DNA of 64,000 bases from a virus (taxonomy: Duplodnaviria > Caudoviricetes), in the IMG/VR virus record IMGVR_UViG_3300035498_000956, one strand, 5' to 3'. Of the stretch, positions 3,545-17,281 are shown in pieces. The notes under the pieces are model-generated. The model searched no databases and was not told the DNA's origin. It saw only the letters and a program-made list of their open reading frames with translations. Numbering within the stretch: position 1 is the stretch's first letter; every line of letters begins with the position of its first letter. The position numbers were made by a program, and so were the translations under genes.

Positions 3545-4741
3545 TTAACATTCATCTAAATATTGGGCGGCAGAAGCAGTTAAGCTACGTTCATTTGATG
3601 AAAGTTTAACCATACCAAAAATAGATGCAAATTGTGAGGACTTTCTTAATTGAGATAAAATTCTTAATCCGTTTTTATTTCTGAAAAGTTGACTATCGGC
3701 TTGTTTAATATCTCCGTCAAAGAAAATTCGAGTATTTTCTCCACAACGTCCGATTAATAGTTTTAAATGGTCTTCTGTTAAATTCTGTGCTTCATTGGCA
3801 ATTATAATGCTATTTTTAAAACTACGTCCACGAATATAGCCAAGAGGAACTATTTCTAATTGCCCCTTATCTAAATAACCTTGAACGTAATCTGCACCGA
3901 TTAAATCAATTAATGGACCAATAGAAGGTAATGCTTTATCATTAGCATCTCCAGGGAGAAAACCTAATTCCATGGCGTTTTCAGTATAAGCGTTATTAGG
4001 AATATAAACTATTTTATCAATGCGATTTTTTAATAACTCTTGCATTGCATAGTTATTTAACAACCAGCTTTTTCCACTGCCATAATTACCTATCGCCGCG
4101 ACAATTGTAATTGATGGGGTATTTAATAATTGCAATAAGCAATCTTGTTCTTTGTTTCTGCCTTTTACTTCCTCAAAACTATTAATTACGTGCTTATGAA
4201 CAGGAATGTAATTTCCTTTACGATATTGTCTTAAATCCAAGATTTCATCATTTTGATTTTTAAAAAGTACAAATTCATTTTCGTAAATTTGCTCATTATT
4301 AATAATATTTCCATGTTCATTATTTAAAATTGATTCTAATTCTGCACTATATAAATTTTCATCTGTCTCTAGTACTACAGTTACAATACCTTCATAATCA
4401 TCTGATTTACTATAACCAATAGCAGTCACATTTTGTGCTTGAGCTTGTACTTTTAAATATATATCATTAGTTACAATTGGAACATCATAATCTTTCGCGG
4501 CGGAAATCAATTGTAAATCAACAGCATCATTTCTAGTAACTGTATCAAATTGAATTTTATCCATATTCCTACTGATTTTAATTGCAGCTCTTCTAGCATT
4601 AAAAGCAGTTTCTTGATTTAGATTATTTTTTAATCCATCTAATTCTCTTAATACGCCTAATGTTAAAATTGGTTGTTCATAGTCATCTATAACATTTGGG
4701 AAATCTAATAATACACATGAGTCTATAATTCCTATCTTCAT
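3545..4741 (-). CDS. phoH: PIN-PhoH (PhoH2/YlaK-like) protein
   Basis: N-terminal PIN (IIDSCVLLD...ELDGLK...VTND); PhoH motifs GNYGSGKS, GFLPGD, YIRGRSF, EAQN, GDIKQAD. Confidence 0.88.
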   Translation of the reverse strand: MKIGIIDSCVLLDFPNVIDDYEQPILTLGVLRELDGLKNNLNQETAFNARRAAIKISRNMDKIQFDTVTRNDAVDLQLISAAKDYDVPIVTNDIYLKVQAQAQNVTAIGYSKSDDYEGIVTVVLETDENLYSAELESILNNEHGNIINNEQIYENEFVLFKNQNDEILDLRQYRKGNYIPVHKHVINSFEEVKGRNKEQDCLLQLLNTPSITIVAAIGNYGSGKSWLLNNYAMQELLKNRIDKIVYIPNNAYTENAMELGFLPGDANDKALPSIGPLIDLIGADYVQGYLDKGQLEIVPLGYIRGRSFKNSIIIANEAQNLTEDHLKLLIGRCGENTRIFFDGDIKQADSQLFRNKNGLRILSQLRKSSQFASIFGMVKLSSNERSLTASAAQYLDEC

Positions 4742-4817
4742 TCGAATCCTCCGTTTTATAACAAAAATAGGGAGAAATCCTAAAGACTTCTCCCTTTAAA
4801 TCTCAAAGAATTAAATT

Positions 4818-5768
4818 CTATAATTCTTTAATTTGGTCAAGAGCCTTAGATAATAAATCTTTATCATCTTCAGTAATCTGAGAGAATTTCGTCTCCTTTC
4901 CAAATACTTTATTTAAAATTTCTAATACTTCATTTTGTCTATTGACTTTTATCATACTAGACCATATTTCTTTTGCTTCATTCATCAAATCATCAAATGA
5001 TTTTTCATAGTATGGATTAACTTCATTGGTAGCTGTATCTCCAGTTTCAGCGGCTTGTTTATCAATAGCATCATAGATTGAATTAACAAAATTCTCATAA
5101 GAAAATTCAATTTTATCAACCATGTATTTGTATCTTGAACCAGCCAAGAATCTGTCGTTTCCTCTAAAGAACATATAAGCTTTTTCTTCATTATCATTAA
5201 CTTTTATGCGGCGGATATAAGCAATTATATCAACCATTTTATTAATGATATTGTAAGGACGAGTTGGCAACGCTGGAACAATTTGAGTATATTCCTCGCC
5301 TTTTTCGTCTTTAAATGTCTTTTCTGTTGAGTGAGAAACGAAAATTAAACCATAACCGAGAAAAGCTAAATCATAAAATGCTCTTTGAAATTCCTTAGAA
5401 GCCATATCATAACCTTGACCATAAGGAATATCACCTAACTTTTCTACACCATTTTGATTACAAATCCATTTTACACAAGCTTCCCACGCTATATCGCAAG
5501 TATCAATACCAAGTGTATTAAACTTTTCTTGAACTTGAGGCATTTTAGCTTGTTTAATTAATTGTTTAAATTCATCCCAGCTTTTTACGGGCTGAACATA
5601 CACATTATTTAACGCATTACTACCGGGTTCAAAAGAACATAACAAACATTTTTCAAATTTTGAAACTAATGTTGTCTTGCCTACTTTTGGAAGTCCGTAA
5701 ACCAAAGTAAACTTACCTTTAAGATTTTTACTAATAACTTGTGGTTCTAAATTCATTAAATCTATCAT
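4818..5768 (-). CDS. AAA_24 / Sak4-like NTPase (probable ssDNA-annealing recombinase)
   Basis: YGLPKVGKTT, IDTCD, FVSH, AGSR; adjacent to SSB. Confidence 0.75.
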   Translation of the reverse strand: MIDLMNLEPQVISKNLKGKFTLVYGLPKVGKTTLVSKFEKCLLCSFEPGSNALNNVYVQPVKSWDEFKQLIKQAKMPQVQEKFNTLGIDTCDIAWEACVKWICNQNGVEKLGDIPYGQGYDMASKEFQRAFYDLAFLGYGLIFVSHSTEKTFKDEKGEEYTQIVPALPTRPYNIINKMVDIIAYIRRIKVNDNEEKAYMFFRGNDRFLAGSRYKYMVDKIEFSYENFVNSIYDAIDKQAAETGDTATNEVNPYYEKSFDDLMNEAKEIWSSMIKVNRQNEVLEILNKVFGKETKFSQITEDDKDLLSKALDQIKEL

Positions 5769-6767: not shown

Positions 6768-6835
6768 ACACATATCCTCCAAAGATAACACTTTATTCAT
6801 TTATTTTTTTTTACATTATAGAGATAAACTCTAAG

Positions 6836-6907
6836 CTAGAGAGGTAGGATTCGAACCTACGTATCATAAAATCAAAATTTATTGTCTCACCACTTGACTA
6901 CTCTCTA
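6836..6907 (-). tRNA. tRNA-Gln(UUG)
   Basis: Acceptor TAGAGAG/CTCTCTA, anticodon arm ATAAA-TTTTGAT-TTTAT, T arm GTAGG-TTCGAAT-CCTAC; CCA not encoded. Confidence 0.88.
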
Positions 6908-6964
6908 ATTTCTCTTGATTTTCTATAATTATTATATCATAATCTATAGGAAAAATCAATTAAG

Positions 6965-7037
6965 TGAAACTGGGGAGATTTGAACTCCCGACTTCCAAAT
7001 TAAAAGTTTGGCATTCTTCCGACTGAATTACAATTTC
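6965..7037 (-). tRNA. tRNA-Lys(UUU)
   Basis: Acceptor GAAATTG/CAGTTTC, anticodon arm CCAAA-CTTTTAA-TTTGG, T loop TTCAAAT. Confidence 0.9.
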
Positions 7038-7043
7038 ATTTAA

Positions 7044-7114
7044 AGCAAGTAGAGGTAATCGAAACCTCATCTTGTGCTTGGGAAGCACACATTCTACCGT
7101 TGAACTATACCTGC
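7044..7114 (-). tRNA. tRNA-Gly(CCC)
   Basis: Acceptor GCAGGTA/TACTTGC, anticodon arm TGTGC-TTCCCAA-GCACA, T loop TTCGATT. Confidence 0.88.
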
Positions 7115-10614: not shown

Positions 10615-13521
10615 TTAATCCTCCAAATTTTCAAAATCCGCATGAGAGAAAACATAATCCTTTCTTGAAACAATATCTTCTCCTAAGAGAACGTCAAAAT
10701 AATATTTTGCCTGCTCAGCGTCGTCCATTTTAATTTGAACCATTCTAGCATCTTTTGAGAATATTGTTTGTCTAAAATCTTCAGGCTGAGATTCACCTAC
10801 GTATTACTCCATTATTTCTAATGGTACTGACCATTTCTTACTGTAAAAACAGCACATCGTTTCGGTTCTCATTGGCTTCGTTTCCTAAAACCAAGACGTG
10901 TATTAATAACGTCCCTACTCCCCAGCATTTCAACCTTAGGGATGGCCGATACAAGTTACTCAATTTCAATATAGGTTTTCCTATTATAAATTCTTTTAAA
11001 CACTTCTCTAGTTACTTTATCTTTAAAGTCTTGGTATAATTCATCTAAAGTTTCGGATGAAGATCTACGTCGAATTTCTCGTATTTCCTCTATACTAAGT
11101 CTTCGACCAGATCCTTTTCCAGGGTGGCTATTCCTCATCCAAGTATGAAAAGCTATATTTTCTTTGGTGAAAACATCCATATGTACCTTTGTCCAAGTAT
11201 CACCATTCCAAATTTTATGAAATCCACTTGGTCCAATTTTATCTTTATATTGTGCATACACCTCATCTTTTATCTGATGCTTATTATATGCTTCACGAAT
11301 ATTATATACATCAGCTTCAGATAATTTATGTCGTGGATGCCTTTCGCCATCTTGAATACGAAGAACCATATTACCACCTTCGTCTTCATTGTAACCATGT
11401 TTATAAGTATCATATAACTTTATATAATATATTTCCCAATCGTTTAATTCTTCTTGTGGACAAGTTTTTAATACTTCAAAATCAAAATTTTCTGTACCAT
11501 ATTTACGAAGAGCACGATAGAACGTTTTTTCATATTCTTTATTACTTTCAACATTCCAAAAAGCTCGTTGTATATGTGTTTTTCTACGTTTTTCAATATC
11601 AATACTTTGTCCAATATAACTATGTCCATTAATTTTATTTGTAAATTTATAAATTCCTATCATAAAATCACTCCTAATATAACGTGAGTGACTATTGAGT
11701 AACTCACGAGATTATCTTCTATTCTTGAAGTAGTTTTCCTAAGCCTTAACTTTAAGAAAAACGGATTACGAGAACGTTCAGACTCCCTCGTTAGCTAAGA
11801 TTTATCTTCTTAACCTCTATTAATAAAATAGATTAGATGTGTTAGGGCCAGACTATCTCTTACCCCTTTAATCTAGTTATATCACCTTTAGGTAATTCTT
11901 TTAGTTCTTTTTCGTTATAAGCAAAATATTTTTTACCTTTACTTTCAACTTTGAATAATGGAGTTACACCCCAATATACTTTACCTGCTTTAATTAATTC
12001 TGGATAATGACAATAGAGAAATGTTAAAACTAAACATACTATATCATATCCATCTTTATCCATATCCGCCATTATAACAATTTTACCATAACGTAATTTT
12101 TTAATATTAAATTTATCTCCCACGCCGCAACCAAAAGCAACGTGTAATTGTTTTACTTCCTCGTTTGCGGCAACTTTATCAGCAGGATTTTTTAAAGCAT
12201 TAATAATCTTACCTCTTAAATCAAAGCAAGCTGTAGTTTCAGAATCTCTCGCTTTAACAAGTGCTCCCTTTGCTGATTTTCCTTCACATATCATTAATTG
12301 TGAGGATTCATCATGTCTTCTGCAGTCAGCAAGCTTTTCTACTAGTATTGCTTTTTTCTTTAATTCTTTTTGAATATCATTATTACTTGATAAAATCGCC
12401 TCTCTTGCTTTATCAGCCGCAATTTCAGCTCGTTGCACCTTAACCATCATTTCAATAATTACAGAGAAATCATTAGTCTTACTAAATTCTTCTAATCCCT
12501 CTTTCATTGCTTGAGAAGTCAAAGTTCTAAGAGACGGCGTATTAATTTTAGATTTTGTTTGATTCGCAAATGATGGGTTTGCTACTTTACAATTAACCGC
12601 ATAGATTAATCCCTTTCTCATCGATTCAGGTTCTAAATTCTTTCCACTTAATTTTTTAATTTGTGTTGTAATAGCAGTTTTCGCTCCAGTAACAGGAGTT
12701 CCTCCCTCTGGACAATATAGTCCATTAACAAACACATAACTCTTTTCTTGTCCGCCAGTCCAAATAAAGGCTACTTCAACTTCATCTGTTCCATCAGTAG
12801 CAGAACAAATAATTGGTTTTTTCATTAATGGTTTTTTAGCTACATCTTTAATGAAATCTGCAATACCATTTTTAGAATAGTATTCTTGAGATTTACTATT
12901 ATCTTGATTTTTTATTATGAATTTAATACCTTTATTTAAATAGGCAATATTTTTTATTTCTTCACAAATTCTATCAAAAGAAAAAGATTCAGTTGCGTTA
13001 ATAAAAACTTTTTTATCTGGTTGGAATGTTATTAGAGTTCCGTCTTTTTCTTTTGTTGTAGTTTCTTCATAGGATTTAAGTAATCCTTCTTCAAAGATTG
13101 CTGTCGCTGATGTTCCACTTCGGTAACTCGTTACGATAAATTTGGAAGATGACATACATACTGCCGTTCCTCCGATTCCGTTCAATCCGCTACTATTTTT
13201 ATAAGAACCTTTATCAAACTTACCACCTGTATGAGATTCAGTATAAATTGCAACCAATATATTCCTATCATCTTTGATACCAAAAGGAACACCACGTCCG
13301 AAGTCACGGCATGATATCGTTCCGTCTGTCTCATCAAGTGTAAGAATGATGCTATCACCATATCCAGCGATTGCCTCATCAGTCGAGTTATTAATGATTT
13401 CCTTTAGGGCTTGATAGATGCCCTCTGTATCGTCTGTTCCAAGATACATTTGGATACGTTGACGCATCGCATTTCTGGTATCGAGGTGCTTTATATTATC
13501 TATATTATATTCTGTACTCAT
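10615..13521 (-). CDS. gyrB: DNA gyrase subunit B, spliced: exon 1 11862-13521, exon 2 10615-10799
   Basis: EIINNSTDE, DFGRGVP, HTGGKF, GLNGIG, LRGKIIN, MADMDKDG. Splicing gives RLKG-L-GESQPEDF...FENLED*, restoring the conserved KGLGE. Start set at ATG 13521 after GAGGAGG. Confidence 0.92.
10800..11861 (-). mobile_element. Group I intron in gyrB carrying a homing endonuclease gene
   Basis: Exon ends GGGGU and pairs with GCCCU (P1). P7 is GGCCAU/AUGGUC. Terminal G at 10800. Core sequence shared with the helicase intron. Confidence 0.9.
10956..11663 (-). CDS. Intron-encoded GIY-YIG homing endonuclease
   Basis: MIGIYKFTNKINGHSYIGQS...R...E...GYN; C-terminal helical DNA-binding repeats (KLSEADVYNIR, RLSIEEIREIR). 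Confidence 0.9.
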   Translation of the reverse strand: MIGIYKFTNKINGHSYIGQSIDIEKRRKTHIQRAFWNVESNKEYEKTFYRALRKYGTENFDFEVLKTCPQEELNDWEIYYIKLYDTYKHGYNEDEGGNMVLRIQDGERHPRHKLSEADVYNIREAYNKHQIKDEVYAQYKDKIGPSGFHKIWNGDTWTKVHMDVFTKENIAFHTWMRNSHPGKGSGRRLSIEEIREIRRRSSSETLDELYQDFKDKVTREVFKRIYNRKTYIEIE

Positions 13522-13589
13522 GTGATTCCTCCTCAAGTTCTCGCGTTTATTTTCTTCTCTCTGTGTCCCTCCCCTCATTTTCTATATTT

Positions 13590-13618
13590 ATTATATCACT
13601 CTTTAGCGGCAAAGTCAA
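13590..13618 (-). promoter_or_regulatory. sigmaA-type promoter for gyrB
   Basis: TTGACT-17 nt-TATAAT. Confidence 0.75.
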
Positions 13619-13789
13619 TTAATTTTCGTTTTGCCCGCTGGAGATTTTGTTTGTGATTCGTTTGGGTAATAGTTAAGGCGGCTAGTTTTGATTCCAGCCG
13701 CCTAGGTTTGAGTTATTTAATTATTTCGGAGTGTTATTTGAGCTGTTACTCAATCACTTGTTTTTATTTATAATTCACCCTATTAATGA

Positions 13790-14254
13790 GCTACGCTCAT
13801 CAAAAATTAGAGAAAATTGATTTTGAACTCTTTTTCTCTAACTTTACTTTTGACTTATGTTTTACACCTACTATTAAAATACTAAACGCCAAGACTTATT
13901 AAACCAGCAAAATAAAACCTTGTTAATTTAAGTTGTGCGCCTATTCGGTAGTCCATAGGCAAGCTGGTTTCTTTGTTCCTCCCCTTCTTTTACAACAATA
14001 CGTTTGTTGACGGCTTAAGTTCCCGTTTTGACGATATAAGTTACGATTAACTGTCATGGATTTTGACATTAATTCCTATAACGTGTGATTTAGAACTTCC
14101 CGCTCACAACACGATTAACAGCGTGGACTAGATAGGCATATCATCACGACATTCCTAAATAGCCTTTTTGATAACGGAGAGCTGTCTAAGCGTCCCTCTC
14201 CGCTTAACAACGAACTAAATCGACTTACGTTAAGCATTCTATATTCACTTTTCT
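13790..14254 (-). ncRNA. Putative large structured non-coding RNA (family unassigned; 3' end uncertain, may extend to ~13676)
   Basis: Consensus promoter at 14261-14289, no ORF, GC-richer than its flanks, many local and long-range helices. Confidence 0.6.
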
Positions 14255-14260
14255 AATATT

Positions 14261-14309
14261 ATTATACCATGTAAACTAGAAAAAGTCAATCCCATTAAGA
14301 GATTGACTT
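14261..14309 (-). promoter_or_regulatory. sigmaA promoter fused to the upstream terminator hairpin
   Basis: TTGACT(14289-14284)-17 nt-TATAAT(14266-14261); stem AAGTCAATC/GATTGACTT. Confidence 0.75.
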
Positions 14310-14317
14310 AATCAAAA

Positions 14318-14830
14318 TTATTTCTTTTTCTTATGATACTTTTTCGCCGCGGAATTTACAACGATTCCTTTATCTTTTTGCTCTTGTTCCCATTTACGTC
14401 TTTTCTCTGCTCGTTCAATTTCATATGTATTGATTCTACCCTCGGCCCAAATAATTTCTCTTTTGTCGGGCTTTAATCTTGCATCATCATCAAATAAAGT
14501 TTTCCATCTATCATCAAGAAAATATTCTAGTTGATAGATTTTCCTTTTTAATATTTCAACCTTCTTTTCATCTGTCTCTGTTTCTAGACATCTATTATAA
14601 TATGCATAGTCTCTTTCAATGATTGTTGGTAAATTTTTATCAAAAACCTTATGATTATGAGCTAAATATTTTGAATCCTTTAAAATCTTATTCCAAAATT
14701 TAACACCAAAGGGACTATCATAATCATGGATTCGTTGATTTTCTTTAACTAAATTCTTTATAACGTTTTTCTTCGTTCTTTTTACTGGCTTTGGACCTTT
14801 TCTCTTTTTCTCTTGATTTATATTTTCCAT
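14318..14830 (-). CDS. Hypothetical basic protein
   Basis: 170 aa, Lys/Arg-rich termini, RBS AGGAGG, own promoter. Confidence 0.65.
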   Translation of the reverse strand: MENINQEKKRKGPKPVKRTKKNVIKNLVKENQRIHDYDSPFGVKFWNKILKDSKYLAHNHKVFDKNLPTIIERDYAYYNRCLETETDEKKVEILKRKIYQLEYFLDDRWKTLFDDDARLKPDKREIIWAEGRINTYEIERAEKRRKWEQEQKDKGIVVNSAAKKYHKKKK

Positions 14831-16732: not shown

Positions 16733-17281
16733 TTAATCCTCCCATCTTAATCTGATAACACTACAATTTACTTGCACTCCATTAACTTTTCTTCTGGTTT
16801 CAATTACGTCAAAGCCTTGGGAAATTATCAAACGTTTAACAGAGGGCCATTTTAACTGTTTTCCACTTGTTCCTTTGAGATTAAAGAACTTACTAATCTT
16901 TTCTTTATCTTCTTTTAATAAAGGTTTTTCTAATAATCTTGTAATTAATTGAATAATTTCCTTTTTAGTTGGCTCTTTATCTTCTTTCTCTTGATATGAA
17001 TCAATAGAAGCATTGATTTTATTATAACCTTTTTCAATTGAATTATAAAGATTAATATAATAAGCTTCTCTTTCGTTTAATTCATCTTCTTTACATTCCT
17101 CTAAAATTTGGAATCTAAACCTATAAGGATGCTCATATAGTTCATAATGAAGCTCATCTTCAACTGAAGTCGCATAACGACCTTGTTCTATATGTTCTCC
17201 CCAGCGGCGAGATATATCAAGTGATTTTCCAATGTACTTCTTATTGTCACGAATATTTTCAATCATATAAATACCTATCAT
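16733..17281 (-). CDS. Free-standing GIY-YIG endonuclease
   Basis: MIGIYMIENIRDNKKYIGKS...RW...E...GYN. Confidence 0.8.
   Translation of the reverse strand: MIGIYMIENIRDNKKYIGKSLDISRRWGEHIEQGRYATSVEDELHYELYEHPYRFRFQILEECKEDELNEREAYYINLYNSIEKGYNKINASIDSYQEKEDKEPTKKEIIQLITRLLEKPLLKEDKEKISKFFNLKGTSGKQLKWPSVKRLIISQGFDVIETRRKVNGVQVNCSVIRLRWED

Follow-up and report, generated by a model that had tools for sequence, protein, structure and literature searches.

A probable stand-alone gene for a large, pseudoknotted RNA in a clade of uncultured low-GC phages

What is made from the ORF-free stretch that separates the gene of a 170-aa basic protein from gyrB in the early module of a large, ~30% GC phage? 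In the window (the whole 64,000-nt stretch of DNA that was analysed), this module lies on the minus strand and encodes RNase H, an ATP-dependent DNA ligase, NrdD, NrdG, GIY-YIG endonucleases, GyrB, and GyrA. An earlier note on this DNA had described a TTGACT-17-TATAAT promoter directed into a stretch without ORFs, and both are there: the promoter was found at 14289-14261, and the window's ORF list holds no frame longer than 42 aa in 13676-14289. We consider it probable that the locus is a stand-alone gene for a large, trans-acting structured phage RNA whose activity depends on its fold, and that this RNA represents a new, narrowly distributed family. The features at and around the locus are the following.

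14318-14830 (-): ORF of the 170-aa basic protein, upstream of gyrB
14309-14283 (-): terminator hairpin of the upstream 170-aa protein gene, overlapped by the RNA promoter
14261..14289 (-): predicted RNA promoter, TTGACT-17-TATAAT with an extended -10 TG, 11/12 matches
13802..13841 (-): AU-rich hairpin and U5, aligned opposite the canonical intrinsic terminators of relatives
13677..13801 (-): trailing spacer, part of the transcript only with read-through
13801-13785 (-): small hairpin in the trailing spacer
13782-13766 (-): motif UAGGGUGAAUUAUAAAU in the trailing spacer, resembling the post-terminator motif of relatives
13703-13677 (-): GC-rich hairpin in the trailing spacer, without a U-tract
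13618-13590 (-): gyrB promoter, the next of the same type, separate from the RNA promoter
11860-13578 (-): gyrB ORF, 572 aa
10956-11663 (-): free-standing GIY-YIG homing endonuclease gene between the end of the 572-aa GyrB ORF and gyrA
16733-17281 (-): free-standing GIY-YIG homing endonuclease gene, with a homologue immediately upstream of the RNA gene in phages of the L016 type

We place the putative transcription start near 14254, ~7 nt past the -10 box. The 3' end of the window RNA is most likely the hairpin with U5 at 13841-13802; because this hairpin lies opposite the terminators of relatives, the RNA would be ~450 nt long (14254 to ~13802) and not 580 nt, so that the lower end of the ~450-580 nt proposed earlier would fit better than the upper. 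The hairpins previously reported at 13786-13842 and 13677-13703 both exist, but the one at 13703-13677 has no U-tract, and the end is now placed at 13802. A strict terminator scan accepts neither the 13841-13802 nor the 13703-13677 hairpin. The minimum free energy of 13676-14262 is -149.3 kcal/mol (z = -4.42, minus strand against shuffled controls), and the fold of 13780-14256 (z = -3.53) was equalled by 0 of 100 shuffles.

Relatives were reached through the 170-aa protein, which led to a copy 99% identical to that of the window (L001) and to L005, on a 152-kb contig, where an ORF-free promoter-to-terminator unit has short conserved blocks in common with the window. Patterns derived from these blocks, together with two covariance models, R1 (Pa/Pb) and R2 (3' core), recovered the full set: six diverged sequence types, spread over 12 IMG/VR viral contigs and two metagenome contigs. 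The carriers are uncultured, low-GC phages with near-complete genomes of ~150-180 kb. The lengths of the types are as follows.

Window type: 467-nt stretch, RNA ~450 nt
L005 type: 578 nt
L015 type: 615 nt
L048 type: ~615 nt
L016 group: 625-626 nt
L025/L026/L093/L108 group: 613 nt

A promoter of the type TTGACT-17-(TG)nTATAAT precedes five of the six types (the -10 box of L005 is TATACT), and a hairpin with a U-tract ends all six, in the relatives as canonical intrinsic terminators. Exactly one copy was counted in each of three genomes with a completeness of 92% or more, two of which have terminal repeats. The 5' hairpins P1, X, Y, and Pi and the 3' AACUCAU...GACGG element of the longer relatives are absent from the window copy; on this comparison it is a minimal version of the family core, and, given the absent 5' domain and weak terminator, it could be a decaying copy.

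Scanned over 74 loci of ligase-sharing phages (1.2 Mb), R1 and R2 found no distant members: scores drop from at least 83 bits to at most 26 bits, and the best weak matches (L085, L084) lie inside ligase genes. Two specific DNA patterns gave 0 matches in 185,579 bacterial and archaeal genomes, a single chance match having been rejected by R1, and a metagenome scan gained only the L025/L026 type. Pattern matches at L011-L013, L017, L019, L022-L024, and L107 fall in coding DNA and were set aside as chance. By blastn, the locus with 10 kb around it has no similar DNA in 50,697 phage records, and the best tblastn match of GyrB in phage records is 36% identical, which points to a phage with no cultured relative. 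We found no description of the RNA family in the literature, and a survey of structured RNAs in IMG/VR reported only elements of 29-151 nt (PMC10690425).

At the gathering threshold, cmscan of the whole window against Rfam 15 returned three tRNAs only, and relaxed scans (E <= 10) of the window region, L005, L015, and L018 gave chance-level matches to unrelated small RNAs. No Rfam 15 match to ROOL, GOLLD, OLE, raiA, HEARO, 6S, RNase P, tmRNA, or group I intron falls at the RNA locus, and ARAGORN found no tmRNA, in agreement with the previous statement that tmRNA ends and an RNase P consensus are missing from it.

The divergence among versions allows the pairing to be tested. Mean column identity is 70-75% with near-identical copies included, and the six types have only short conserved blocks in common. 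We compared paired cells in the alignment with slid partners and, for Pa/Pb, also with shuffles; the covariation rests on few independent changes, the family being six sequence types. In the window RNA, from the 5' end, the elements are these.

14239..14248 (-): 5' motif GUGAAUAUAG, conserved (GUGAAUAG or UUGAAUAG in relatives); the window RNA begins just before it
14202..14235 (-): helix Ph, GCUUAAC/GUUAAGC, with covariation
14175..14202 (-): helix Pa, CGGAGAG/CUCUCCG, whose loop holds the PK1 5' strand (14188-14182)
14126..14164 (-): long hairpin Pb, GGCUA..UAGG / CCUA..UAGUC, with covariation
14115..14121 (-): PK1 3' strand CUGUUAA, partner of the Pa loop segment UAGACAG
14084..14108 (-): hairpin Pg, UGUGA/UCACA (AAUAA/UUAUU in L005)
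14035..14080 (-): helix Pj, UAUAGG/CUUAUA, enclosing the UGUCA/UGACA hairpin and a conserved AUCGUAA
13993..14033 (-): best-conserved block, with CGUCAAAA, hairpin Pe (CGG/CCG), and hairpin Pf (CAACAA-ACGUA-UUGUUG)
13975..13992 (-): purine-rich, Shine-Dalgarno-like motif UAAAAGAAGGGGAGGAAC, conserved, including a G-rich run
13901..13970 (-): helix Pc, AAACCAGC/GCUGGUUU, enclosing hairpin Pd
13960-13939 (-): hairpin Pd, GCCUAU/AUAGGC, with loop GGACUA at 13954-13949
13954-13949 with 14130-14125 (-): candidate PK2 by complementarity, Pd loop GGACUA with UAGUCC

At least 12 predicted helices are supported by base-pair covariation. In the Pa/Pb domain 97.5% of cells are paired, against 42-47% with slid partners, and both sides change in 10 of 20 pairs, against 1-2 slid, a count reached by 0 of 500 shuffles; for Pe/Pf/Pc, 95% are paired against 31-47% slid, with both-side changes in seven pairs. 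Pa reads CGCAGUA/UACUGCG or CGCAGUG/CACUGCG in relatives, and the tip of Pb is strongly conserved as A(C/A)UGUCGnGAUGAUA(G/U)G. Pd takes the form of five distinct, fully pairing stems at one place (GCCUAU/AUAGGC, GUCUUAUA/UAUAGAC, CGAUG/CAUCG, CCCUUA/UAAGGG, and CUACUUA/UAAGUAG). Each of Pd, Ph, Pj, Pi, and Y has 3-5 differing, fully pairing sequences at an equal position; for instance, relatives have CAUGGU/ACCAUG, CAUAGU/ACUAUG, UUAAGGU/ACCUUAA, and UAGAAUAG/CUAUUCUA at the position of Ph, and UUAAUA/UAUUAA, GAGAA/UUCUC, and UUAAGA/UCUUAA at that of Pj. Pairing is kept in the same way as in Pd by Ph, Pj, and Pg and, in the longer versions, by P1, X, Y, and Pi. Matched changes occur even within the close pair L015/L048 (e.g., CAUGGU/ACCAUG vs CAUAGU/ACUAUG), and of the five substitutions in total that distinguish the 99% identical L001 from the window copy, the two in helices both lead to G.U wobbles. 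All six helices listed in the earlier note are present at the places it gave. GCUUAAC/GUUAAGC, GGAGAG/CUCUCC, CAACAA/UUGUUG, GCCUAU/AUAGGC, and AAACCAGC/GCUGGUUU are kept by compensatory changes, whereas UGUCA/UGACA is not, being an insert hairpin of the window copy only.

The predicted pseudoknot PK1, formed between the 3' half of the Pa loop and the segment directly after Pb, is clearly supported by covariation: 85.7% of cells are paired against 39-49% slid, both sides change in three pairs (9 cells against 0-2), and across versions the strands read ACAG/CUGU, AAAGA/UCUUU, UAAAUGA/UCAUUUA, UAAACAA/UUGUUUA, and AACGG/CCGU. The alignment also suggests a second pseudoknot, the candidate PK2, in which AGUCCA/UGGACU, proposed before as a long-range pair, would join the Pd loop to the Pb 3' strand; it is able to form in six of six versions. 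Its support is strongest in the window copy and the L025 type, and there PK2 is the longest Watson-Crick complement of the Pd loop anywhere in the RNA. It overlaps the outer 4-5 pairs of Pb, which covary themselves, and in some versions a CCUCUCC motif of the 5' domain could be an alternative partner of the purine loop of Pd. Joint changes in the Pd loop and in both strands of Pb, seen in the window copy, suggest alternative or intermolecular pairing. The other long-range (kissing) pair put forward earlier, AAGUUC/GAACUU, loses its complementarity in the other versions. The proposed collection of homologues and test of covariation has in this way yielded six types and compensatory pairing.

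Across the phages, the RNA gene is found in three slots of a replication module that is syntenic in other respects.

Slot 1: between RNase H and ligase; L015, L048, and the L016 type
Slot 2: between nrdD and nrdG; the L025 type
Slot 3: after nrdG or the 170-aa protein gene and before gyrB; the window and L005

The Lys/Arg-rich 170-aa protein, which matches no Pfam or PHROG family, had been suggested as a partner of the RNA. It is absent from G004, a complete, RNA-bearing, 180-kb genome, and its gene lies ~7 kb from the RNA in L016-type phages and is not adjacent to it in the L025 type either. The absence and the distance leave the partnership without support and, judged from gene content, the protein is not an obligate partner of the RNA. 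Within the same module, the nrdD genes of relatives (L020:2087-4745, L026:3453-6372) align with the window NrdD piecewise, in two or three separate segments, a hint that they carry inserts (introns or inteins), none of which is found in the window copy.

These comparisons establish a conserved single-copy gene, with a promoter and terminator recognizable in the DNA, for a large RNA that is predicted to be pseudoknotted and that has no catalogued relative. The locus has the marks of a stand-alone structured ncRNA gene, namely its own promoter and terminator, compensatory pairing, and no conserved ORF, and the earlier suggestion of a new large phage ncRNA agrees with an RNA that is promoter-driven, structured, pseudoknotted, and without an Rfam match. 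Host RNA polymerase would transcribe the gene early from the near-consensus extended -10 promoter, and this transcription, presumably strong as well as early, would stop at the intrinsic terminator. The RNA would fold into at least 12 conserved helices tied by PK1, with the candidate PK2 competing with the base of Pb, and may act in trans through its three-dimensional fold, as a protein scaffold or decoy or as a self-associating RNA particle. Selection appears to have kept the pairing and a few unpaired motifs, and not a coding frame or a given neighbour gene.

We think it unlikely that the RNA is an ornate machine, either a self-assembling multimer or a translation-targeting decoy. As a multimer, it could use the three-way complementarity of the Pd loop and Pb 5' strand with the Pb 3' strand for intermolecular strand exchange; self-association through PK2-type contacts is speculative. 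As a decoy, it could use the exposed Shine-Dalgarno-like GGGGAGG and, in relatives, the mimic of the 16S rRNA 3' tail (UGAUCACCUC). Interference with translation, also a speculative idea, comes to mind because the Shine-Dalgarno-like UAAAAGnnGGGGAGG recurs in the gyrB leader and because relatives carry UGAU(U/C)ACCUC. The purine motif AAAAGAAGGGGAGGAAC (13975-13991, minus strand) recurs as AAAAUGAGGGGAGGGAC at 13565-13581 on the same strand, at the start of the gyrB leader; this copy stands ~60 nt upstream of the start codon (listed 13578) and within the listed gyrB ORF. Loose matches to the motif number 3 in the window against 0.19 expected, the third being an ordinary ribosome-binding site. 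In the 5' domain of relatives (L048:7885-7900, L015:3135-3150, L025 ~5295-5310), a hairpin is followed by UGAU(U/C)ACCUC(C/U), an element that resembles helix 45 with the anti-Shine-Dalgarno tail in 16S rRNA (GAUCACCUCC); this domain is missing from the window copy.

Leaving aside ribosomes, RNase P, and introns, we know of only a handful of large RNAs with complex folds. The family of the window RNA would be an additional one, unrelated to ROOL and GOLLD, with a compact conserved core of ~450 nt and clear boundaries in its promoter and terminator, and the natural minimal version in the window, alongside the longer versions, offers structural biologists a new target. Phage biologists gain one more example with which to ask about the role of such RNAs early in infection; a narrow distribution and an uncultured host limit its value.

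A giant cis-acting leader or attenuator, in which the RNA senses a signal and controls terminator read-through into a replication or nucleotide-metabolism gene, would fit the layout of promoter, structured RNA, terminator, and gene, and we regard it as improbable. The genes downstream of the RNA are gyrB, nrdG, DNA ligase, and an ORF that is nucleotidase-like by eye, all concerned with replication or nucleotides, and in L005 a DNA-modification gene of the Mom family. The next gene of L015 and L048 begins ~60-70 nt past the terminator, with only a ~35-nt motif between and no sigma-70-type promoter visible, and this short distance keeps the cis-acting leader alive. Leaders normally travel with their gene, whereas here the downstream gene differs between versions; moreover, in the window the RNA is set apart from gyrB by a further hairpin and by a consensus promoter distinct from its own, a length of 450-626 nt is far above known attenuator sizes, and no alternative pairing of the terminator/antiterminator kind was seen. 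The conserved ~35-nt motif, AGGG(A/G)AAAAUCUAU..AA.UC..UC.GG, stands after the terminator in four versions, and the window has a weaker form of it (window 13766-13782 (-), L005:5577-5612, L015 ~3688-3722, L025 ~4775-4810); it moves with the RNA cassette, not with the downstream gene. As a recurrent phage promoter the motif was rejected, its 8 matches in the window against 6.2 expected being no enrichment.

It is quite unlikely that the locus yields a replication-origin transcript or pre-primer RNA of the ColE1 RNA II or T4 oriF/oriG type, with a fold that controls R-loop formation or priming. Like those transcripts, the RNA is ~0.5 kb long, promoter-driven, structured, and set in a replication context: it always lies within the replication module, adjoins RNase H in three versions, and has a strong constitutive promoter, a conserved G-rich run, and a single copy. 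Unlike them, it ends at an intrinsic terminator in every copy, with no run into an origin, and it shifts among three slots in otherwise syntenic relatives. A search for iterons, direct repeats, and AT-rich unwinding repeats found none, strand and GC skew switch at ~26 kb and not at the RNA locus, and the conserved pseudoknotted architecture goes well beyond the known needs of R-loop control of the ColE1/T4 type.

The variable position among close relatives, the GIY-YIG endonuclease gene directly upstream in L016-type phages, a genome rich in endonucleases and intron-like inserts, and the conserved ~35-nt post-terminator motif that moves along with the RNA could all speak for a selfish mobile cassette, or for what is left of a mobile element (such as a degenerate intron or an RNA associated with a homing endonuclease), without function for the phage. 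We hold this to be very unlikely. The RNA is bounded by a consensus promoter and a terminator of its own; the genes on both sides are complete, and none is interrupted as a host gene is by a group I intron. Pairing has been under purifying selection in six diverged versions, which speaks for a function. The locus gives no group I or II signal: the group I intron model (RF00028) has no match at E <= 10 in 13500-14400, and the same relaxed mode, as a check of its sensitivity, finds a group I intron match elsewhere in the window, at 1507-1605 (27.5 bits, E = 4.9e-5). The latter match, on the minus strand between two helicase-like ORFs, is below the gathering threshold.

ROOL and GOLLD are large, ornate RNAs of Firmicutes prophages and phages, were lately found to form unprecedented RNA-only cages, and are obscure in their biology. 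The earlier note had named membership of this class as one of two options for the window RNA, and its suggested cmscan against Rfam matched no family at the locus; four members of the family gave no Rfam match at E <= 10. They are nonetheless the nearest kind to the window RNA (PMC5737381, PMC12286853), which is likewise several hundred nucleotides long and phage-borne, has many helices, multistem junctions, and pseudoknots, forms its own transcription unit, and combines a conserved core with a variable peripheral domain. That it is a very diverged ROOL or GOLLD beyond the reach of narrow Rfam models seems to us highly doubtful. The similar size, phage context, and multi-junction pseudoknotted fold (450-626 nt, at least 12 helices, PK1) are a resemblance, not homology; the phage is apparently of an anaerobic gut or rumen type, and ROOL has an average length of 581 nt and few invariant nucleotides (PMC5737381). 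In four versions no ROOL, GOLLD, OLE, or raiA match appears at E <= 10 with relaxed filters, the RNA does not reach the ROOL (RF03087) membership cut-off of 99.1 bits, and the ROOL model matches none of three whole related contigs, though control genomes are silent too, which makes this last result weak by itself. The RNA gene does not share the frequent ROOL/GOLLD location, beside tRNA genes and in prophages, the nearest tRNAs (6835-7114) being ~6.7 kb from its likely 3' end, and its distribution is far narrower (six types in one phage clade). Multimeric cages, a property of ROOL and GOLLD, would be speculative for the window RNA family.

Two further groups of RNAs invite comparison. OLE and raiA are carried on chromosomes and occur widely among bacteria; OLE, in addition, has partner proteins with dedicated genes. 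The window RNA is like them in being highly structured, stand-alone, and abundant-looking, with conserved unpaired motifs that hint at protein or RNA partners; unlike them it is found only in phages, has no constant neighbour gene, and matches nothing in Rfam. For the long ncRNAs of Staphylococcus phage K (Kayvirus), we know of no published covariation model. These RNAs are highly transcribed, their role is obscure, and they have been likened to GOLLD and ROOL for their position beside tRNA genes (PMC9241854). The window RNA is similarly a long ncRNA of a large, low-GC phage (phage K is a Firmicutes phage), but it differs in that the blastn search of the locus found no similar DNA among the phage records.

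Lastly, it is extremely improbable that the locus encodes one or more small proteins, such as the 40- and 42-aa ATG ORFs at 14115-14237 and 13941-14069 in the window copy: in the near gap-free Pa-Pb alignment a single frame is open in all versions but the window and its 99%-identical twin L001, but that sole widely open frame is broken by a stop in the window copy, the position and frame of the ORFs are not conserved in other versions, the variable columns have no third-position excess, with variation highest at would-be codon position 1, and the substitutions are compensatory for pairing. The window RNA stretch has 10-16 stops per forward frame, all versions have 8-20 in each forward frame under the standard code, and a conserved short ORF, which the earlier note had named as grounds for giving up a noncoding RNA, was found in none of the six versions. 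Reading TAG, TGA, or TAA as sense likewise revealed no long conserved frame in any version, a test that matters for TAG because the neighbouring Mom-family gene of L005 is readable only in that way. This gene, just downstream of the RNA at L005:5655-6803 (+) (contig IMGVR_UViG_3300035517_000383), matches PF25680 with 143.7 bits over profile positions 2-202 of 202 and needs at least seven in-frame TAG codons as sense, which suggests either TAG recoding in the phage or a decayed gene.
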